This document shows positions 1,259 to 30,132 of a stretch of DNA of 64,000 bases, piece by piece (position 1 is the first letter of the stretch; each line of letters begins with the position of its first letter). The stretch lies in the sequence record OR896832.1, one strand, 5' to 3'. Below the pieces are notes generated by a model. It was not told the DNA's origin. It was given only the letters and a program-made list of their open reading frames with translations, and ran no database searches. The position numbers and the translations under genes were made by a program. Origin of the DNA: Escherichia phage GoldenSnicker.

Positions 1259-1567
1259 TCATTTAGACAAATAATCATTCTGTGCAATCCGGTCAGCATG
1301 TTCCGGCGTTACGTCAATTGCAATCACTTTAACGCGTGCTTTCTTGCGACCTGGGTTTTCTCGTAACCAGTGCTCATGACCGTGAACATTTTTATACTGC
1401 GATGCTTCTTCGAAGGTACGGATCGGACCTGGGTAATCAGCGTAAAGGATCTCTAGATCTTCAGTGATGTAAAAATATACATCGTAATTGCTGTTCTCTA
1501 GCTTAAGCAGAGACTTTCGGAACATTGGGAGATTTTCGCGGGTAAATTCAAAGATATTATCTTTCAT
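1259..1567 (-). CDS. hypothetical protein, member of HxHW/AxDV paralog family
   Basis: 102 aa; shares YxYI(T/D)EDL, HGHEHW and VIAIDV motifs with five neighbouring ORFs. Confidence 0.55.
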   Translation of the reverse strand: MKDNIFEFTRENLPMFRKSLLKLENSNYDVYFYITEDLEILYADYPGPIRTFEEASQYKNVHGHEHWLRENPGRKKARVKVIAIDVTPEHADRIAQNDYLSK

Positions 1568-1618
1568 AGTATTATCCTCAATAGTTGGATGAAAAGGGGG
1601 GGCTTAATGCCCCGTATA

Positions 1619-1906
1619 TTAAAACAGTCCTTCCTGTACACCGTAGTAGAGTTCATCGCTGATAATTTCATTAATGCGACGGTGTGCATATTCCTGATTT
1701 GCGAAGTTATCAGCAAGTTCTACTTTAGTTTCGCCGTCATGAGTCCATTTAGTGATAACTTTACCATCTGCAAATTTGAAGTTGAACTCTTTAGCTACTG
1801 CATCGCGTACCAGACGTGCGAACTTGTTGTTACGGATTGCATTATCGGTTTCGTGTGCAGCGTGAGCGAATTTGTTAACTTTCAGAGTGATAGTAATGTA
1901 TGCCAT
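1619..1906 (-). CDS. hypothetical small early protein
   Basis: 95-aa ORF; promoter cassette 1953-1981 upstream. Confidence 0.45.
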   Translation of the reverse strand: MAYITITLKVNKFAHAAHETDNAIRNNKFARLVRDAVAKEFNFKFADGKVITKWTHDGETKVELADNFANQEYAHRRINEIISDELYYGVQEGLF

Positions 1907-1952
1907 AATTTGATTCTCCTAGTTAGAAAGTGTATCTCGTTTCGATGGGTGT

Positions 1953-1981
1953 ATTATGCTATACACCCGATCTTATGTCAA
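1953..1981 (-). promoter_or_regulatory. sigma70-type early promoter (PeSL-like cassette)
   Basis: TTGACA (1981..1976), 17 bp, CATAAT (1958..1953). Confidence 0.55.
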
Positions 1982-1987
1982 CACTTT

Positions 1988-2281
1988 TTATAAAATAATT
2001 TTTTGATATTTTTCTATGATGTTCGTGTAAGTCACATCAACCGCTAGCACCGTTGCTTCGAATCCACCGTTTAGCCAATGGCTATGGTCATGGTCGTGAA
2101 AGAAACCAAGACCAGTACGAAGACCTTCTTTATATTCGGCGCGTACATTTAGATCATCATCGATAAACAGATAAAACCATGAATTTTTACTAGGATTGAT
2201 GATACAACCTTTCAGATTAGGGAGAATATCACGACTAAGAATAAACTTATCACCTACTTTGAACATAATATTAGTCCTCAC
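1988..2281 (-). CDS. hypothetical protein, HxHW/AxDV paralog family
   Basis: 97 aa; HDHDHSHW and VLAVDV motifs. Confidence 0.55.
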   Translation of the reverse strand: MRTNIMFKVGDKFILSRDILPNLKGCIINPSKNSWFYLFIDDDLNVRAEYKEGLRTGLGFFHDHDHSHWLNGGFEATVLAVDVTYTNIIEKYQKIIL

Positions 2282-2591
2282 TTATAAGGTCAAACCAATT
2301 GTTTTTCGCATAATGCTTAATGCGTGCTTGATCTGCTTCCGATGGTGATAGATTCCATGCAACCACTACAACTTCTGACGCATCGTCATCCGTTTCTGAT
2401 ACCCAATGATTGTGATTCATACAGTTATTTGCTATCGAGTGAGCAAATGATTTCATCACTGGAGACGTATAATCGTAGTAACGGATTTTCAGATTTTCAT
2501 CAACGTACAAATAGATCGTATAAGGTTTATATTCAGTAACCAGTAACAGACAGTTACGCAATTCTGGGAAAATCTTTTTAGTTAATTTCAT
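2271..2591 (-). CDS. hypothetical protein, HxHW/AxDV paralog family (start trimmed to internal Met)
   Basis: YLYVDENL and NHNHW motifs; listed ORF extends to 2672 but overlaps the next gene, so an internal start is preferred. Confidence 0.45.
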   Translation of the reverse strand: MKLTKKIFPELRNCLLLVTEYKPYTIYLYVDENLKIRYYDYTSPVMKSFAHSIANNCMNHNHWVSETDDDASEVVVVAWNLSPSEADQARIKHYAKNNWFDLISED

Positions 2592-2592
2592 T

Positions 2593-2832
2593 TTATAATC
2601 CTCGGTCTCGGCTATAGTACACGGTACGCCATACAATTTCATGTTTCGTGTCGCTCCAGCACACGATCTCATTTACTCTTAAATCTTTGTTATCAACAAA
2701 AGATGAACATTGTGACGCTTCTTTCATCATTTTATCTGCTGTTTTCTCATCAAATACAGCACAGATTTCTTTATACACTCGATAATCTTTGAATTGACTC
2801 TGGATACCCATAATTAACACCATTCCAACCAA
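2593..2832 (-). CDS. hypothetical protein, second small paralog pair
   Basis: 79 aa; SQFKDYRVYKEI...KMMKEASQC resembles neighbour 2771-3028 (SKFKDYKAYQQI...KMMEDASKC). Confidence 0.45.
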   Translation of the reverse strand: MVGMVLIMGIQSQFKDYRVYKEICAVFDEKTADKMMKEASQCSSFVDNKDLRVNEIVCWSDTKHEIVWRTVYYSRDRGL

Positions 2833-3028
2833 TTGTTTTTGAGAAAACGTTTATCCACTGTTGAGTGTAGCATGTTTCTTTCCATGATACAATACGAGTA
2901 GAATAATGGTTTTTGTTTCCAGAAAAGGACGGACATTTTGATGCATCTTCCATCATCTTTTCGGCGAACTCTGGTGCGTATACTCGCAGGATCTGTTGAT
3001 ATGCTTTATAATCTTTAAATTTGCTCAT
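2771..3028 (-). CDS. hypothetical protein, second small paralog pair
   Basis: 85 aa; paralog of 2593-2832. Confidence 0.45.
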   Translation of the reverse strand: MSKFKDYKAYQQILRVYAPEFAEKMMEDASKCPSFSGNKNHYSTRIVSWKETCYTQQWINVFSKTIGWNGVNYGYPESIQRLSSV

Positions 3029-3293
3029 AATTGTTAACTACCTTATCAGCTTCTTTTATTGTTTTTACATCAACTGCGATAATCCGTAAAGGTTCGTCGA
3101 AGGTCCACCAATGATCGTGATTATCAGCTTGTGATTTATCACCAAAGGAATCACGAATATCATTTTTACATTTATAGCTAATGTGACCGTCATAGTCAAT
3201 ATAAAGGTAATTATCGAAAATCGGCGTTTTTAAGATCATACCGAAAAATCTTTCTTTGTGTGTCTTATCCAGCGTTGCAGTAATTCGCATCAT
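3015..3293 (-). CDS. hypothetical protein, HxHW/AxDV paralog family
   Basis: 92 aa; YLYIDYDG, DNHDHWW, IIAVDV motifs. Confidence 0.55.
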   Translation of the reverse strand: MMRITATLDKTHKERFFGMILKTPIFDNYLYIDYDGHISYKCKNDIRDSFGDKSQADNHDHWWTFDEPLRIIAVDVKTIKEADKVVNNYEQI

Positions 3294-3517
3294 AATATAT
3301 TCCTCTTAGAAAGGGATGGTCATTTCTTGAGCTTGTACATTTTCGTTAGGATTAAACTTCATCCAACCGATATTGTCTACCAGTATATGCACATTTTTAT
3401 CATATCCTACGTGGGTAGTCAATACTGTATGTGCTTTACCTTCAATGATGAGTTCCATGTACTTCTGAACTTCGATAGCTTTCATTTTGATTCTCCGTTT
3501 GTTGTCTTGATGGGAGT

Positions 3518-3546
3518 ATCTTACTACTCCCTTTAATCATTGTCAA
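3518..3546 (-). promoter_or_regulatory. sigma70-type early promoter with inverted repeat
   Basis: TTGACA (3546..3541), 17 bp, TAAGAT; inverted repeat gggagta/tactccc spans the -10. Confidence 0.45.
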
Positions 3547-3549
3547 CTA

Positions 3550-3753
3550 TTATTTGTTAATTTCCGGTGCGTTGCTTGGATAGTAACCTTCTTTAACACC
3601 CAGATATTTTGCAACCATTCCGGTGATCTTCTGTGCTACTACGATATCGAATTTCAGGTAGTCTTCACCGTGGTTTGCTACAATGTATGCTTCGCATTCT
3701 GCTTTAGTCTGGAACATTTTTGATTCTCCTATATCTCGTTGGTATGTGTGCAT
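3550..3753 (-). CDS. hypothetical small early protein
   Basis: 67-aa ORF with promoter 3752-3781 upstream. Confidence 0.45.
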   Translation of the reverse strand: MHTYQRDIGESKMFQTKAECEAYIVANHGEDYLKFDIVVAQKITGMVAKYLGVKEGYYPSNAPEINK

Positions 3754-3781
3754 TATAGGGGATCACCGATCCCCTGTCAAC
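3752..3781 (-). promoter_or_regulatory. sigma70-type early promoter with palindromic spacer
   Basis: TTGACA (3781..3776), spacer containing ggggatcaccgatcccc inverted repeat, TATAAT (3757..3752). Confidence 0.55.
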
Positions 3782-3785
3782 AACT

Positions 3786-4136
3786 TTATAATGCTTTATA
3801 TGCGTATTTCATAAATTTGTCTGCCACTTCATTGGCATGTTCAGATTCTACGCCTGATTCGAGAACAATAGCTAGGTCGGTTTCGTCATTCCCGCCGTAC
3901 CAATGATTTGATGTTCGATTTTTTTCAATTGGAAATTGGTCACTTTTATCTGTGCGACAAAATACATCTAAATGCTCGTCGATGTAAAAGATCCAATCTT
4001 CATAAAGAATAACGGTATTAGCCAGATTTTTATTGCCTTCAACGAAAGGTTCGGCTACAAACAAATTAGTATGTTCCATAGTATTTTCCTCAAAATTATA
4101 CAGCTTCGTAAACTTCCCAATGTCCAACACCAGCAC
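3786..4136 (-). CDS. hypothetical protein, HxHW/AxDV paralog family (divergent)
   Basis: 116 aa; IFYIDEHL, SNHW, AIVLESGV motifs. Confidence 0.45.
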   Translation of the reverse strand: MLVLDIGKFTKLYNFEENTMEHTNLFVAEPFVEGNKNLANTVILYEDWIFYIDEHLDVFCRTDKSDQFPIEKNRTSNHWYGGNDETDLAIVLESGVESEHANEVADKFMKYAYKAL

Positions 4137-4287
4137 GCTTAACGAAAAGGTTTTCTTTTATGTTATTCATAAACGTCTGGATGGATTTAATGCGGTTTGA
4201 AGGTTTCCATTCTTCGTTGGCATTGCGTCGATACATCATAACATTACCAGTTCGCTTATATTCAGCAACCATTTTAAGACCACACAT
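4096..4287 (-). CDS. hypothetical small protein
   Basis: 63-aa ORF; overlaps 3786-4136 by about 40 nt. Confidence 0.35.
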   Translation of the reverse strand: MCGLKMVAEYKRTGNVMMYRRNANEEWKPSNRIKSIQTFMNNIKENLFVKRAGVGHWEVYEAV

Positions 4288-4343
4288 AATATTATCCTCA
4301 ATTTGTGGGAGAGTATTACCCTCCCGATTATTGTTATACTACA

Positions 4344-4646
4344 TTACGCAAAATTGCGTGTCAATGCTTCTTTTGCTGTTCCGCTAAGATTCTCGATCTC
4401 TCCTGGCATAACATCAACCGCAAGAACTTCTACAACATCCTCTGATCCTAACCAGTGAGTATGACCTTTGTAGAACTTGATATCCCATTTAACGCTATCG
4501 CTAGCCCACCACACATCACCGTCGATAAAGTTGATGTAAAGCACACTACGCCACATTGAATTAATTACTTTCAATACTGCGCCTTTCATCTCTTCCACGG
4601 TGTGGTCTTCCATTTTGAAGACCTCGCCTACCTTAACTTTTGCCAT
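4344..4646 (-). CDS. hypothetical protein, HxHW/AxDV paralog family
   Basis: 100 aa; YINFIDGD, KGHTHW, VLAVDV motifs. Confidence 0.55.
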   Translation of the reverse strand: MAKVKVGEVFKMEDHTVEEMKGAVLKVINSMWRSVLYINFIDGDVWWASDSVKWDIKFYKGHTHWLGSEDVVEVLAVDVMPGEIENLSGTAKEALTRNFA

Positions 4647-4663
4647 TTAGTCACCTCTCTTTA

Positions 4664-4843
4664 TTACATAACAATCACGCCAGCCGTTGAAAGTTGATGT
4701 TTCAACTGAGCATTTTCTGCTACCGTCAAATCAATGATTTCTTGTGACGCTGCAATCATATAGCCATTGGTGATATTGTTTTGCATCAGTTCAATGGTCT
4801 CTTCGTTGTAGCGGATTTTAGCGATGATTTCGTTGAAGTTCAT
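4664..4843 (-). CDS. hypothetical small protein (start at internal ATG)
   Basis: listed ORF 4664-4909 begins by reading through the promoter cassette; ATG at 4843..4841 follows a GGAGA SD. Confidence 0.45.
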   Translation of the reverse strand: MNFNEIIAKIRYNEETIELMQNNITNGYMIAASQEIIDLTVAENAQLKHQLSTAGVIVM

Positions 4844-4877
4844 AATTGATTCTCCTAGTTCGTTTCGGTATGTGTGT

Positions 4878-4906
4878 AGTATAGGGGATCGGTGATCCCC
4901 TGTCAA
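4878..4906 (-). promoter_or_regulatory. sigma70-type early promoter with palindromic spacer
   Basis: TTGACA (4906..4901), 17-bp spacer ggggatcggtgatcccc, TATACT (4883..4878). Confidence 0.55.
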
Positions 4907-4919
4907 CAACTTTTTTGAA

Positions 4920-5264
4920 TTATTTTTTCATGAGCTTAATGGCTTCTTCCATAGCCAACACATTTCGATAGTTAGGGTATCTTGTTAGATCGTCATACAT
5001 TCGCTTAAGGGTGGAAACTTCCTCAAACTCTGGGTTTTCAAGATACAATTGAACGAATTGTTTCTCTACCATCTCTGCTTTTAGCTTGTCTGCTTGTTCC
5101 TGTTCATATGATTTAGTTGGACCCAACACCAACAAAATGATAAAGGTGATCAACGGGCTAATGATCAACGATAGGAGAACATAACCGATAACGCTACGGT
5201 TTAAACGGCTTGCGTACATGCCTACCAGGAAAACAAAAAGGATATAGATAAACAGAAAGAACAT
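4920..5264 (-). CDS. small membrane protein
   Basis: 114 aa with two N-terminal hydrophobic segments and a charged C-terminal tail. Confidence 0.5.
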   Translation of the reverse strand: MFFLFIYILFVFLVGMYASRLNRSVIGYVLLSLIISPLITFIILLVLGPTKSYEQEQADKLKAEMVEKQFVQLYLENPEFEEVSTLKRMYDDLTRYPNYRNVLAMEEAIKLMKK

Positions 5265-5271
5265 ATAATGG

Positions 5272-5745
5272 TTACTCCTTATTTTCGCGCTCGTACTTTT
5301 CGAAATAAAATTCTACTGGCTGGTCGTGGATTGACAGCAAGCCAAAGCGTTTAGCCGCTCGCAACCCCATATTGCGCTGAATGTACTTCTGGAAGTTCTC
5401 TCGTATACACTTACGCCAGTATTCTAAGCCCATACAGCTTTTATAAAGATTGCATTGCACACACGACGGATTCATGTTATCAAGTATATCATGTTCCGGT
5501 TTATGCATTCCTACAACCTTATACTTCCACGATCCATCATCATTACGGGCAATTCGTCCCTTTTCATCATAGACTACTTTTGAGCGTCGCAATACTGGTT
5601 TGATGTGGTCTGCGTGCCAGCGATCCCCTAGTTCCTCGCCACAATAGGCACAACGTCCACCGTATTTCATTTTCAGGATCTGGCGTTGCTCTTTCTTTGA
5701 CAATTTTTTAGGTTTAGGGGCTTTCGCCCCTTCATTATCACACAT
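5272..5745 (-). CDS. HNH endonuclease (free-standing, homing-type)
   Basis: CAYCGEEL...HADHIKP...CVQCN HNH motif; overlaps 3' end of the ligase gene by 8 nt. Confidence 0.65.
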   Translation of the reverse strand: MCDNEGAKAPKPKKLSKKEQRQILKMKYGGRCAYCGEELGDRWHADHIKPVLRRSKVVYDEKGRIARNDDGSWKYKVVGMHKPEHDILDNMNPSCVQCNLYKSCMGLEYWRKCIRENFQKYIQRNMGLRAAKRFGLLSIHDQPVEFYFEKYERENKE

Positions 5746-7234
5746 CGAATACCTCTTTTACTGTATTTGCAGTGGTCTTGTCGTAGCGAATACGTTTGAT
5801 GATCGGGAGAAATAAAGAGAACTCCGGTTCATCTTCTTTACGTGATTTGCTGCGGATATACCCGTTGCATGTCATCTCAATGACTTTTCCAATCAGGTTA
5901 TGACGGTCAGCCCATAACATTTCTCGGTCAAGTTCATTTCGACGATCGAACGGAATTACACGTTCGATACCATCATCACCTTTTTCGGTTGTAGTGTCGG
6001 TTAATCCCGATCCGGTGTTAGTCATCATTCGTCCACACGCACTACGGACAGTAAAACCGCCTACCTTATTGGGGTCTTTACTATGCGGATATACATCAAC
6101 AATTTCCGCGTCGAAGTCAATCACTTCTTTAAATTTAACCTGATCTTTACTACGGCGATCTTCAAATACACCATGCAGATTTTTAAGGATAATACCTTCT
6201 AAGCCCATGTTTACATAGCGATGATATACTTCGCGAGCTTCATCGATATTGTTAACTACAGTATTTTCGATTATCTGAACACGAGGATCGTTAAGTTCTT
6301 CAACAATCTGTTTTAGTTCTTCGAATCGATCTTTATATTGCTTCGTTGCTTTCTCGTTTCCGTAATACACATCACGGTCGATAACATCCCAGACAGTGTA
6401 AACAATACATTGGGCTTCTTCTTTTGGAATAGTTCCTTTCAGTGATTTGTTGAGGATACCATTTCCGGTCTGACGATCCGCAACAACGGATTCTTTTACT
6501 GCTTCCGCTACTGGCGTTAATGGTATTTCCTCTTCTTCAAATATCCATGACAGAGTACCATCATAAACGCTCTCAACGAAGTTCTGCGCTGGTGTTTGCG
6601 AAAGGGTAGGCATATATACCAATTCGCCATCTAGAACAATTCCACGGCCTCGTAGACGCTCTAAAACAGAAAACAAATCATCCAGCCACTGGTAGGTATT
6701 ACCTGAACGGGTATAGATTGCTAATGTTTCCCCGTCAATATCAGCCATACCACGAGCGCCATCACTTTTAAGCTGTGCATATGCCGGATATTTGATATTA
6801 GCAATAGCCTTATCAGAATATGACGATGCAAGGTGGCATGGTTGCTGGGGGATCAGTTTCTTCCATACCTTGTTTGCAGTGGTAGCGGAACAACCGCATT
6901 CCAGATCACGATTCAGGACCATCATTGCAACTTTAGCATCATCTTCTGACAAGCAAGTCAGAGTATCGGTAACTAGCTGTAATGCTGCATTACCAGTTAC
7001 TTGACGCGTGGCAAGTTTATTTTTAAAGACCTGCAATGCACCGGATAAAGACAATACAGACGAATAGCGCGATGGTTTATCGTATTTCTTTACGCCAAAC
7101 GTAACCTGTTTGCAATATGCCAGATAAAAGCATTCTTTCAGCGTTTCATTGCTTGCAGATTCTTTCAGAATCTTTTCTTTCAGCGATGTTTTGTCTGTTG
7201 CTGCAAGCTGATTAATGATATTAAGAATTGACAT
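5738..7234 (-). CDS. 30: ATP-dependent DNA ligase
   Basis: colinear with T4 ligase as recalled (KLTGNAA, RDLECG, AQLKADGAR lysine motif, DGELVY). Confidence 0.85.
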   Translation of the reverse strand: MSILNIINQLAATDKTSLKEKILKESASNETLKECFYLAYCKQVTFGVKKYDKPSRYSSVLSLSGALQVFKNKLATRQVTGNAALQLVTDTLTCLSEDDAKVAMMVLNRDLECGCSATTANKVWKKLIPQQPCHLASSYSDKAIANIKYPAYAQLKSDGARGMADIDGETLAIYTRSGNTYQWLDDLFSVLERLRGRGIVLDGELVYMPTLSQTPAQNFVESVYDGTLSWIFEEEEIPLTPVAEAVKESVVADRQTGNGILNKSLKGTIPKEEAQCIVYTVWDVIDRDVYYGNEKATKQYKDRFEELKQIVEELNDPRVQIIENTVVNNIDEAREVYHRYVNMGLEGIILKNLHGVFEDRRSKDQVKFKEVIDFDAEIVDVYPHSKDPNKVGGFTVRSACGRMMTNTGSGLTDTTTEKGDDGIERVIPFDRRNELDREMLWADRHNLIGKVIEMTCNGYIRSKSRKEDEPEFSLFLPIIKRIRYDKTTANTVKEVFDV

Positions 7235-7700
7235 TTTCACCTCGTTTTGTTAAACGTTCACGAATATCATTGAGGATACTACAAAATTCCGATTCAGTCA
7301 ATATAGTCTTTAACGGATCGGTTCCACCTATACTATGACGTAATTTCTTATTTCCGGTAGAGAGTAATGCTTTACAAAATGCTGGGTTATTCCGTGCCAT
7401 CGTAACAAATGCCAGATGTACCAGTCTGTAATAATGCTCACTCATTCGATGAATCGGGCGACCCTGAAAATATAACATGTGATTCTCAATCTTTTCAGTT
7501 CTTCCGGTTCTTTTTGCTTTGCCACCGTGCATCAAAAAGATTTCTCTTTGTCTCTGAGGGTTCTTAAATCTTAGCCCCTGTAAAAATCCTTCTGTGCTGT
7601 TAATATCGCAACCAAATAGACGGAATGGTCTTTTATTGAAATTACTCAATTCACCCGATGGATAAGGTCCACCCGCATAGATATCAATTTCAGAAGTCAT
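7221..7700 (-). CDS. NADAR (DUF1768/YbiA-like) domain protein
   Basis: YAGGPY...LSNF...PF...F.S.EGFLQGLRF pattern resembling YbiA/NADAR. Confidence 0.5.
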   Translation of the reverse strand: MTSEIDIYAGGPYPSGELSNFNKRPFRLFGCDINSTEGFLQGLRFKNPQRQREIFLMHGGKAKRTGRTEKIENHMLYFQGRPIHRMSEHYYRLVHLAFVTMARNNPAFCKALLSTGNKKLRHSIGGTDPLKTILTESEFCSILNDIRERLTKRGENVNS

Positions 7701-7872
7701 TGAAACTAATCTCGCTAATCAGAGAGAACGGATCATAATCGTCATTAGGAATATCGATAGTAATCGAATGAGGATTTACCCATACACCAAACTGGTCTTC
7801 TTCGGTGAATACTTCGGTATGGATTTCGTGGATGTTTACATTCATAGTTTTCATAATAAAATTCCTTAACAA
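7690..7872 (-). CDS. hypothetical small protein
   Basis: 60-aa acidic ORF upstream of the NADAR gene. Confidence 0.35.
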   Translation of the reverse strand: MLRNFIMKTMNVNIHEIHTEVFTEEDQFGVWVNPHSITIDIPNDDYDPFSLISEISFNDF

Positions 7873-7899
7873 TCAATAACTTACAAAATCATATAGCCA

Positions 7900-7930
7900 A
7901 AATATAGGCGGGATTATTTCCCGCCGTTTA
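7900..7930 (-). terminator. rho-independent terminator
   Basis: hairpin ggcggga-ttatt-tcccgcc with U-rich flank on minus strand, downstream of gene 31. Confidence 0.55.
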
Positions 7931-7936
7931 AAATCA

Positions 7937-8260
7937 TTAACCGTAAACTACCACAATATTCTGTTTGTGCGTTACAGTCCATTTCAGGTCGATCTCTTCT
8001 TCCTTCTTAACGCCGTTAATAACGTCTGGATGAGGAACTTTATTCATCTTGCCATGTGGCAGTAAAACAGTTTTACCCAGCAATTCTTTATCTACCGTTT
8101 CACCGATATCAATAATCTTACCTACCAGCGGAATCTCGCCCATAGTGCGCTTTTGCTCAATAATGATCCCCATAGAGCTTTTTACTTCTGTCCCTGCGCT
8201 TTCTGCTTTAGCTTCAATGATCACATAGTCACCAAGTGCTTTAGGAGTTTTAACGGTCAT
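7937..8260 (-). CDS. 31: co-chaperonin GroES-like
   Basis: 107 aa; GDYVII, VPHPDV and size/position match T4 gp31. Confidence 0.7.
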   Translation of the reverse strand: MTVKTPKALGDYVIIEAKAESAGTEVKSSMGIIIEQKRTMGEIPLVGKIIDIGETVDKELLGKTVLLPHGKMNKVPHPDVINGVKKEEEIDLKWTVTHKQNIVVVYG

Positions 8261-18412: not shown

Positions 18413-18479
18413 ATTACCTCACTTCATATTTTAGCAGGAACAAGTTTATCCTCCATATTGGGGGCTTTCGCCCCCTTTG

Positions 18480-19700
18480 TTATACTGCCATTTGAGCGGT
18501 GATCGCTGGATGGCTTTGATAGTTGTGAATTTTAAAATCTTTCGGAGTCTTTGTCAATACCTCATCTAAAGATTTAAATTCCGGCAACTCAATTGTTGGT
18601 TTATCAAACGGAACACGGCTTAACTGTTCCATAACTTGATCAAAATGGTTTTTATAAATGTGAGTATCTCCACCAGAGAAAATCAGTTCTCCTACCTCAA
18701 GATCACACATTTTCGCTATGATGTGAGTTAACAGCGCATAGCTGGCGACGTTAAAGGGCAAGCCTAAAAAGCTGTCTACGCTTCGCTGAAACCACATACA
18801 AGACAGTTTACCTTCATTGACGTAGAATTGCACGAAAGGATGACATACACCTAACACAGCATTATGCGTTTCCTGTACGTTCCATGAATCAATGATAATA
18901 CGACGACTATATGGATCATTCTTGATCATGTCAATAACTTTTTGTAACTGGTCTTCCCAAATCTTCGGGCGATAGACATATTCTTCATCGTCTTTAGTGC
19001 TTGATGTGTCTACGTCCATACTAACAAACATCGTGGTATCCGGTGCTATAATATCCCCACCCAGATAATCACTATCAAGCAGATAACCGAAATAACCATC
19101 ATCTACCCATTCCTGGAATCCCCACAAGCAATATGCATCATTAACAAAATTAGATTGAGTCTTCCAGTGGTCTGCTACCAGAATATAATCAAACTCTTCA
19201 TAACGCATACCACGCCAGATAGCACATAAACGGTCTTCTGTTTCATTGGTTGGCGTAAAGTCTTCTACCCACGGGTGTTTAAATGTATGTGTATATTTGC
19301 TCTTAACGCGCTTAATTTTGATTTCACCGTGTGGATGAATCGGTTTGCGTCGCCACGCCATACCATACATATTGCCGACATTATAACCATTGAATCGCAA
19401 AGGATTCTTTTCTTTCATATCAAGGCAGTTTCCGCGCCAAATATCAAAGGCTTCCTCGTCAAACTTGCCGCGTGTAATTTCCTGTAAGCGACGGCGGTCA
19501 AGTGACCCCTCCATAAACCATAGCAACTCGCCAATTATAGAGGCTGTAGCCATCTTTTTAGTGGTCAGTAATGGAAAACCCTTACTTAAATCAATTCGCA
19601 TCTCTGCGCCGAATTTAGAGAGCGTACCTACCCCAGTTCGGTCTTCACGAGGCCAGCCATTATCAAGAACATCACGCAACAGTTTCAAATATTCTTTCAT
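18480..19700 (-). CDS. td: thymidylate synthase with ~110-aa internal insertion
   Basis: ThyA motifs (DRTGTG-like, DSWNV, CHPFVQFY, FLGLPFNVASYALL, GDTHIY); extra segment between the GxxWR and DPxSRR motifs; no intron. Confidence 0.85.
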   Translation of the reverse strand: MKEYLKLLRDVLDNGWPREDRTGVGTLSKFGAEMRIDLSKGFPLLTTKKMATASIIGELLWFMEGSLDRRRLQEITRGKFDEEAFDIWRGNCLDMKEKNPLRFNGYNVGNMYGMAWRRKPIHPHGEIKIKRVKSKYTHTFKHPWVEDFTPTNETEDRLCAIWRGMRYEEFDYILVADHWKTQSNFVNDAYCLWGFQEWVDDGYFGYLLDSDYLGGDIIAPDTTMFVSMDVDTSSTKDDEEYVYRPKIWEDQLQKVIDMIKNDPYSRRIIIDSWNVQETHNAVLGVCHPFVQFYVNEGKLSCMWFQRSVDSFLGLPFNVASYALLTHIIAKMCDLEVGELIFSGGDTHIYKNHFDQVMEQLSRVPFDKPTIELPEFKSLDEVLTKTPKDFKIHNYQSHPAITAQMAV

Positions 19701-30116: not shown

Positions 30117-30132
30117 GGGGGCGAAAGCCCCC
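30117..30132 (+). other. GNRA-tetraloop RNA hairpin GGGGGC-GAAA-GCCCCC
   Basis: perfect 6-bp GC stem with GAAA loop between genes 34 and 35; identical sense-strand hairpin at 18460-18475. Confidence 0.5.

Follow-up and report, generated by a model that had tools for sequence, protein, structure and literature searches.

A ligase-linked HNH endonuclease gene in Escherichia phage GoldenSnicker and its Krischvirus relatives

The free-standing homing endonuclease genes of bacteriophage T4, as exemplified by mobE, are promoter-less cassettes whose start codon overlaps the stop codon of an essential gene and whose 5' coding end carries a GC-rich hairpin; the overlap and the 5' internal terminator are thought to limit the expression of mobE and segF (Edgell review, PMC2988022). 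A second system of direct relevance is the promoter/stem-loop cassette (PeSL) of phages RB49 and phi1 and the hyperplastic region described by Arbiol et al. (PMC2839356), in whose reporter assays RB49 GGGG...CCCC stem-loops without U-tracts terminated transcription, lowering downstream reporter expression. The RB49 counterpart of the gene analyzed here, RB49ORF212c, appears as an HNH endonuclease in the category 'Putative mobile DNA elements' of Nolan et al. (2006; PMC1524935), and apart from such listings in genome papers no literature on the ligase-linked HNH was found.

The DNA analyzed here, referred to as the window, is a stretch of 64,000 nucleotides from Escherichia phage GoldenSnicker (sequence record OR896832.1). 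An earlier note, made from the sequence alone, had described in it a 157-aa ORF at 5272-5745 with an HNH motif, an 8-nt overlap with the ligase gene and a GGGGC-GAAA-GCCCC hairpin in the 5' region. These three observations hold: the motif is confirmed by Pfam, by phrog_2118 and by invariant residues, the overlap lies at 5738-5745, and the hairpin occupies codons 6-10. The note's further proposal, a homing endonuclease inserted beside a conserved gene, is taken up below. The explanation preferred here as a whole, with a probability of about 0.55, is a fixed, vertically inherited and selected HNH gene that was formerly a homing gene and has low expression coupled to that of ligase.

The HNH gene at the 3' end of gene 30

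The features of the ligase/HNH junction are as follows.

5272..5745, minus strand: HNH endonuclease ORF of 157 aa with an ATG start (ORF list and sequence)
5738..7240, minus strand: gp30, ATP-dependent DNA ligase of 500 aa, the cistron upstream of HNH in one shared transcription unit
5738..5745, minus strand: 8-nt ligase/HNH overlap, ATGTGTGA, comprising the ATG of HNH and the TGA that ends ligase
5752..5755, minus strand: HNH Shine-Dalgarno sequence GAGG, in the final ligase codons, 6 nt 5' of the ATG

The ligase is identified by Pfam DNA_ligase_A_M (PF01068, 1.5e-21) and by phrog_114 (3.4e-142), and the window gene order pseT, cd, 31, 30.3, 30, HNH is a compressed T4-type arrangement. HNH is the orthologue of RB49ORF212c (RB49p212, NP_891783), which is annotated 'HNH endonuclease' in RB49 and has the same overlap with gene 30; the window protein shares 98.7% amino-acid identity, position and overlap with RB49ORF212c and with phi1 ORF212 (ABR24722). 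The window allele differs from that of most relatives at two residues, K62 and S94, and otherwise in nothing of substance. Gene and annotation are already known, and the product is a routine phage HNH endonuclease; the new details are its fixation, its deep synteny and the origin of its hairpin.

The overlap is unchanged in the window and in 13 fetched relatives, and the GAGG preceding HNH is annotated as a ribosome binding site in the record of phage Makalu_002; the Shine-Dalgarno sequence is good, and independent initiation at HNH is therefore possible. Alternative starts at M26 or at a TTG at L15, either of which would leave the hairpin in an untranslated leader, were rejected because family homology begins at residues 13-15, because neither has a Shine-Dalgarno sequence, and because the MC start is shared by a sister lineage (contig L037, below). 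Between ligase and HNH neither a sigma-70-like site nor a late promoter (TATAAATA) was found.

The layout thus far described closely resembles that of T4 mobE and SegF (at nrdA and gene 56, respectively): a nuclease gene that is small, encodes a single domain and lacks its own promoter follows directly on a conserved essential gene, with a start/stop overlap that is UAAUGA in T4 nrdA/mobE and ATGTGTGA in ligase/HNH of the window, and with a GC-rich hairpin with a 4-nt loop in the 5' coding end. The promoter-less cassette beside a conserved gene that is typical of mob/seg-type genes is accordingly present here, with its 8-nt overlap and with no promoter-like site. As in mobE, HNH would be read from the transcript of the upstream gene, in this case ligase mRNA, its AUG overlapping the ligase stop. 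The two hairpins differ in that the mobE terminator has a poly(U) tract and the window hairpin has none.

Motif and fold of the HNH protein

The ORF matches Pfam PF01844 at 25.5 bits (cut-off 21.4, E 1.4e-5), in an alignment that covers the N-terminal half of the profile only because of an insert in the phage protein, and it matches phrog_2118 'HNH endonuclease' at 5.8e-54. The residues concerned fall within one segment.

5449..5652, minus strand: catalytic zinc-finger HNH core, codons 32-99 (C32, C35, D46-H47, N90, C95, C98, N99)

In a 64-sequence family alignment C32, C35, D46, H47, N90, C95, C98, N99 and K102 are invariant, as are R21, R111, F146, F148 and E149. They include the D-H pair of the general base, the structural Asn and metal-ligand positions and the CxxC...CxxC zinc site by which the HNH superfamily is recognized. 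The predicted core is a CxxC...DH...N...CxxCN (H-N-N) variant of the zinc-finger motif, and the AlphaFold2 model (mean pLDDT 93.2) has the beta-beta-alpha fold around it, residues 44-47 and 52-57 forming strands and residues 96-102 a helix.

A search of the PDB with the single HNH sequence gave no significant match; the family profile matched 4H9D, the Gme HNH nicking endonuclease (Geobacter metallireducens Gmet_0936), with an E-value of 1.6e-6, making this protein, which shares the CxxC...DH...N...CxxCN core, the best solved relative by profile. In the fold search the best matches were all HNH domains (Cas9, 4H9D, Cap5) and all weak (E 0.02-0.2, TM no higher than 0.38 when normalized to query length), such that with E-values of 0.02 or more the structure gave no assignment to a functional subclass; 4H9D is among these top matches, and its match over the whole protein is poor (TM 0.29-0.44). 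Unlike 4H9D, the phage protein has an insert of ~25 residues between DH and N, modelled as a beta hairpin, and a conserved C-terminal helical domain (W110, R111, RFGL, F146, F148, E149), the latter with no solved counterpart. The HNH core is therefore certain, while the complete architecture is without a solved counterpart. Fold and residues together point to nuclease activity, and the ORF would encode a small DNA endonuclease of the zinc-finger HNH (beta-beta-alpha-metal) type, whose activity is most likely nicking or cleavage of double-stranded DNA.

Two other functional assignments draw on these same matches. A packaging-associated role of the HK97 gp74 type, in which HNH would assist terminase cleavage, could appeal to the match of the family profile to 4H9D, a protein that has presumably been compared with gp74-type packaging proteins, and to one homologue, in Bas77, that lies about 0.8 kb upstream of the large terminase gene. 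It is nevertheless very improbable: the terminase or genome-end adjacency characteristic of gp74-type genes is absent in the window, in RB49 and in the sister lineages, where the gene belongs to the early pseT-cd-31-30.3-30 cluster of nucleotide-metabolism and ligase genes, as in all ligase-linked relatives, far from terminase, and most homologues examined do not adjoin terminase. T4-type phages, moreover, package DNA by a headful mechanism with the gp17 nuclease.

As little weight is given to HNH being a phage Holliday-junction resolvase (an endonuclease VII analogue) or, failing that, a decaying remnant without function. The CCCC zinc and D-H...N architecture is common to HNH and endonuclease VII, and there are weak PHROG matches to families labelled 'endonuclease VII' (3.9e-9 and 5.4e-7). 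Against this, T4 endonuclease VII is a marginal match in sequence and fold: T4 gp49 matches the window at an E-value of 0.49 only, and Pfam Endonuclease_7 gave no match to the HNH ORF at E <=0.01. Krischvirus genomes have a separate full-length gp49 orthologue elsewhere (44.6% identical to T4 gp49, E 3e-40), and HNH was on these grounds rejected as the gp49 orthologue or sole resolvase. The remnant is excluded by the selection data given below.

The 5' hairpin, its insertion and the downstream border

The hairpin and the insertion that carries it occupy the first codons of HNH.

5716..5731, minus strand: hairpin AGGGGC-GAAA-GCCCCU, with a 6-bp stem and the GNRA loop GAAA, about -12.6 kcal/mol
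5716..5739, minus strand: 24-nt in-frame insertion GATAATGAAGGGGCGAAAGCCCCT, amino acids 3-10 (DNEGAKAP), in Krischvirus-type sequences only

The core of the hairpin is the 14-mer GGGGCGAAAGCCCC (5717-5730, minus strand), which encodes G-A-K-A-P at codons 6-10, and a flanking A/U pair completes the 6-bp stem; the whole lies at +15..+30 from the HNH AUG and 7 nt past the ligase stop. The origin of the hairpin is indicated by comparison of N-termini, which read MC-KPKKLTKK in the L037 sister lineage and MC-DNEGAKAP-KPKKLSKK in the window, other family members starting with M-x-LSK and more distant lineages with MA(S)LSK. The hairpin is thus carried within the clean 24-nt Krischvirus insertion, which in addition contributes the GA of the TGA that ends ligase and thereby created the 8-nt overlap.

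The hairpin is invariant in 13 of 14 aligned Krischvirus sequences (window included) and in four further Krischvirus-type metagenome fragments, the exception being phage Cognac, in which one change breaks the stem. This is the only polymorphic site between -25 and +62, against the 8.7 or so predicted by the gene-wide density, and such low polymorphism points to a constraint beyond protein sequence.

The 14-mer occurs three times in the window (0.01 expected). The other two copies, between td and nrdA and between a 1246-aa ORF and the next ORF, have one extra G-C pair and are intergenic, 4-5 nt after a stop codon and without a U-tract. The terminator scan did not call the HNH hairpin as an intrinsic terminator, because it is followed by no T-run or U-tract.

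In the sister lineages HNH is followed by a canonical terminator and then an early promoter, and in Phi1-type Krischvirus genomes by a PeSL immediately past the HNH stop codon; these signals place HNH as the last conserved cistron of the ligase unit, the early 30.3-30 unit, bordering the hyperplastic region. In the window, two elements follow.

4920..5264, minus strand: ORF211-type cassette, a 114-aa predicted membrane protein (phrog_25625), a variable neighbour
4878..4906, minus strand: first PeSL cassette (PeSL211/210), an early promoter with a stem-loop, TTGACA, GGGGATCACCGATCCCC, TATACT (promoter scan 11/12)

ORF211, described as RB49-specific by Arbiol et al. (PMC2839356), is present in 21 of 58 records, the window and 20 others, as an inserted gene that brings its own Shine-Dalgarno sequence AAGGAG (5275-5280, within the final HNH codons) and takes the place of the last four codons of HNH, whose protein then ends in ...ENKE. 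The remaining 37 records lose similarity near window position 5285, and in them the protein ends in ...EHQEK. The PeSL211/210 stem-loop (4884-4900) terminated transcription in the reporter assay (PMC2839356), and with this cassette, the one that adjoins the HNH stop in Phi1-type relatives, the ligase-HNH(-ORF211) unit ends and the hyperplastic region begins.

The PeSL stem-loops (Arbiol et al. 2010) resemble the HNH hairpin in having the form GGGG...CCCC and in lying just past a stop codon. Unlike a PeSL, however, the GGGGCGAAAGCCCC hairpin has no sigma-70 promoter and lies within a coding region, and its two other copies lie outside the ORFan region. The first true PeSL (211/210) is found 370 nt downstream.

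A mechanism consistent with this anatomy is that the Krischvirus insertion, by putting a stable GNRA hairpin just inside the HNH gene, would attenuate transcription or hinder independent initiation, such that HNH would be scarce and would come mostly from ribosomes that had terminated on ligase immediately before. The insertion, then, probably limits HNH expression, and from the arrangement of these signals we infer that this expression is low and coupled to that of ligase.

Distribution, selection and the question of homing

Window positions 4000-8000 match 59 phage records at 95-99% identity, all of them RB49-like Krischvirus coliphages (Straboviridae). The ligase matches 59 records and HNH 58; the apparent HNH-less record, AJ550428.1, was set aside as a 1,491-bp RB49 fragment that ends inside ligase. 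At the ligase junction HNH is present in every one of the 58 Krischvirus records that reach it, at 96.3-98.7% DNA identity. The full 157 aa are aligned by tblastn in all 22 Krischvirus records among the matches listed, where no Tequatrovirus (T4-type) record appears, and the ORF is intact in the window and all 13 fetched relatives.

Within these 14 genomes (the window and the 13 relatives), dN/dS is 0.026 for HNH and 0.040 for ligase, with pS values of 0.124 and 0.107, respectively. Polymorphic sites make up 10% of HNH and likewise 10% of ligase, and 41 of the 46 variable sites in HNH are at codon position 3. Purifying selection on HNH is as strong as that on ligase, and within the genus HNH is of the same age as ligase and constrained at least equally. 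Since its synonymous divergence equals that of ligase, there has been no recent sweep; in a selfish element that had swept recently or was decaying, neither ligase-like age nor such constraint would be seen. The decaying remnant mentioned above is excluded by the dN/dS of HNH and by the intact ORFs. Disrupted alleles do occur in a few metagenomic fragments: L122 has an amber codon at W110, L043 carries 1-nt deletions at three positions, and the 3' end of L123 is chimeric. They represent either mutations or sequencing/assembly errors; if real, they would make HNH dispensable.

Beyond the genus, a protein search revealed intermediate HNH relatives at 71, 60 and 59% identity, all three beside ligase. 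Each of these sister lineages is represented by a few metagenomic contigs.

L030/L031: 168-169 kb T4-type contigs; ligase 51% and HNH 60% identical; 23-nt overlap
L034: 7.8 kb contig; ligase 60% and HNH 59% identical; 16-nt gap
L037: 1.3 kb contig; ligase 71% (C-terminal 246 aa) and HNH 71% identical; TAATG overlap (1 nt)

In L030/L031 the gene order is rnlA, pseT, cd, 30.3, 30 and then HNH, and in L030 the neighbours 30.3, cd and pseT are 49-56% identical to those of the window. Judged by these alignments, three uncultivated T4-like lineages keep ligase followed by HNH, and HNH has diverged in step with its neighbours.

More distant homologues (30-50% identity) are found at unrelated loci: in a Morganella T4-like phage at a different locus, the td-regB region; in the lambdoid phage HK225 in the nin region; in the siphovirus eiAU in the replication module; in Bas77 as described above; and in various metagenomic contexts. 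In a metagenome scan with the ligase-linked HNH alignment as query, in which the best 80 loci were kept, ligase adjoined HNH in 2 of the 80, both Krischvirus-type (many of the contigs are short). IMG/VR, searched with ligase and HNH, yielded only two Krischvirus contigs and distant Aeromonas-phage ligases without HNH. No HNH-less allele of the window-type ligase was found in phage records, IMG/VR or the metagenome scan, and no homing is therefore possible within the sampled clade. In other T4-type phages, of which more than 1,300 records have ligase, this HNH did not turn up beside it; in Pseudotevenvirus and Slopekvirus a different, (AP2-)HNH gene lies on the other side of ligase.

The conserved adjacency raises the possibility that HNH is a DNA-repair or DNA-processing nuclease forming a cut-and-seal pair with ligase, translational coupling fixing their relative amounts. 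Four lineages keep the pairing and the co-translation geometry, HNH is conserved as strongly as ligase, and the closest solved relative is a nicking enzyme. The geometry itself nonetheless varies from a 16-nt gap through 1-nt and 8-nt to 23-nt overlaps, this HNH did not turn up beside ligase in the other T4-type records just cited, other family members have no ligase nearby, and possible knockout alleles exist; the pairing is on balance improbable. Equally doubtful is its evolutionary version, according to which HNH and gp30 would be a conserved co-translated cut-and-seal pair in one T4-type clade, a former homing endonuclease having been recruited. If this were true, HNH might for example act as a nickase, its breaks being made and resealed in controlled proportion to serve recombination priming, genome processing or evasion of a host defence, and the Krischvirus hairpin insertion would be a later device for tuning the HNH:ligase ratio.

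A more serious, though still rather unlikely, alternative is that HNH is an active selfish Mob-type homing endonuclease, which cuts in or near gene 30 of phages without HNH and is copied in by repair. Fixation would then be apparent only, the sampled clade being saturated and selection for activity being sustained as the gene goes on invading HNH-less relatives outside the sample; an endonuclease of this kind, fixed yet wholly selfish, would yield the identical selection signal. The layout matches that of T4 nrdA/mobE, the family is scattered over unrelated loci in other phages, one of them a Straboviridae phage with the gene elsewhere, and HNH sits at the edge of a recombination-prone variable region; the (AP2-)HNH gene on the other side of ligase suggests that gene 30 attracts such elements. 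What stands against it is the absence of any presence/absence polymorphism, the synteny kept where ligase is only 51-71% identical with HNH diverged in parallel, the ligase-like synonymous divergence and the lack of an empty-site allele of the window-type ligase in any of the three collections searched.

The first of these points bears directly on the earlier note, which had named presence/absence polymorphism at this junction in related phages as a check on its homing interpretation and presence of the gene in all relatives as grounds for giving it up; no such polymorphism exists, as all 58 relatives carry HNH. T4 homing genes, by comparison, are variable among T-even phages and exhibit homing or marker exclusion (PMC2988022), and the sporadic presence among close relatives that marks mob/seg-type genes is replaced here by presence throughout Krischvirus and in three sister lineages. 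Occurrence of the family at different loci in different genomes, also a mob/seg-type feature, is observed, and indicates past mobility. The homing interpretation accordingly survives in part, as a free-standing HNH gene with a mob-like layout and scattered homologues, and has to be amended in that the gene is fixed, old and selected.

The preferred reading, a fixed and selected former homing gene, accommodates both sets of observations. The simplest history suggested by the alignments is one acquisition, by which a mobile HNH gene settled at the end of gene 30, followed by vertical inheritance. The 3' end of gene 30 would probably have received the gene as a free-standing homing endonuclease in an ancestor shared by Krischvirus and three or more uncultivated sister lineages, an origin by homing being suggested by layout and family distribution; thereafter it would have been inherited vertically with ligase, under purifying selection and without movement within the clade, as a fixed accessory gene. 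Its present benefit would most plausibly lie in cutting the DNA of co-infecting relatives without HNH (marker exclusion) or other foreign DNA. Candidate roles are the exclusion of HNH-less co-infecting phages, another DNA-directed function, and a functional pairing with ligase.

HNH thus departs from presence/absence variation, a standard expectation for homing genes, and the fitting description is of an HNH nuclease that is fixed and has probably been domesticated or is maintained by competition, not of a recently inserted homing element. Its hairpin illustrates on a small scale how a stem-loop can in nature come to be inserted, in frame, within coding sequence where two genes meet. Annotations of therapeutic Krischvirus phages may usefully mention the gene, without its being a priority target, and it is a reasonable candidate for studying the fate of homing endonucleases after fixation, be it domestication or continued competitive use.

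Disrupted alleles and the 3' end of the HNH gene

The HNH gene is disrupted in some metagenomic fragments of Krischvirus type:

L122, 2501-2830: TGG-to-TAG change at codon 110, with the codons after it otherwise conserved
L043, 435-1029: three deletions of 1 nt each in homopolymers, spread over the catalytic core
L123, 2501-3224: unrelated sequence from after nt 227 on

In L043 a downstream segment is inverted in addition to the three deletions. These alleles represent either real loss of function or artefacts of assembly or sequencing. The 3' end of the gene also varies with ORF211 (window 4920-5285 including the insertion point, minus strand; 114 aa with a hydrophobic N-terminus; phrog_25625), which is carried by 21 of the 58 Krischvirus records and whose insertion point falls within the final 13 nt of the HNH gene, thus giving rise to two HNH C-termini, ...ENKE and ...EHQEK.

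Small ORFs of the hyperplastic region

Translation of the small ORFs located 3' of HNH (window 1259-4646, minus strand) reveals at least six apparent paralogues, which have in common a motif near the C-terminus, H-x-H-W ... (V/I)-x-A-V-D-V:

1259-1567, minus strand
1988-2281, minus strand
2271-2672, minus strand
3015-3293, minus strand
3786-4136, minus strand
4344-4646, minus strand

Judged by these translations, the ORFs are a putative tandem ORFan family within the hyperplastic region.

Further hairpin copies and the thymidylate synthase ORF

Two additional copies of the GAAA-loop hairpin, both with the sequence GGGGGCGAAAGCCCCC and a stability of ~ -15 kcal/mol, are present in the window:

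18460-18475, minus strand, td-to-nrdA junction
30117-30132, plus strand, between the 1246-aa ORF and the next ORF

Each is preceded by a stop codon 4-5 nt to its 5' side and followed directly by the ribosome binding site of the next gene, and neither has a U-tract; the two look like a small repeated class of post-stop stem-loops, separate from the promoter-bearing PeSLs. The 406-aa thymidylate synthase ORF (window 18480-19700, minus strand) matches the Pfam domain in two stretches; the in-frame insert between them, ~130 residues long (about aa 115-245), itself has no Pfam match.

HNH genes at the other end of gene 30

The ligase gene of Pseudotevenvirus and Slopekvirus shares 20 nt at its start with an HNH gene, as exemplified by two records:

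Citrobacter phage Miller (L035), 1969-2517: annotated as containing an AP2/ERF domain
Klebsiella phage KLB1 (L036), 1969-2517: annotated as HNH endonuclease, nothing more

Both adjoin gene 30 on the side opposite to that of the Krischvirus HNH, where other Slopekvirus records list a HAD hydrolase alone beside the ligase. HNH genes seem to have been attracted to gene 30 repeatedly.
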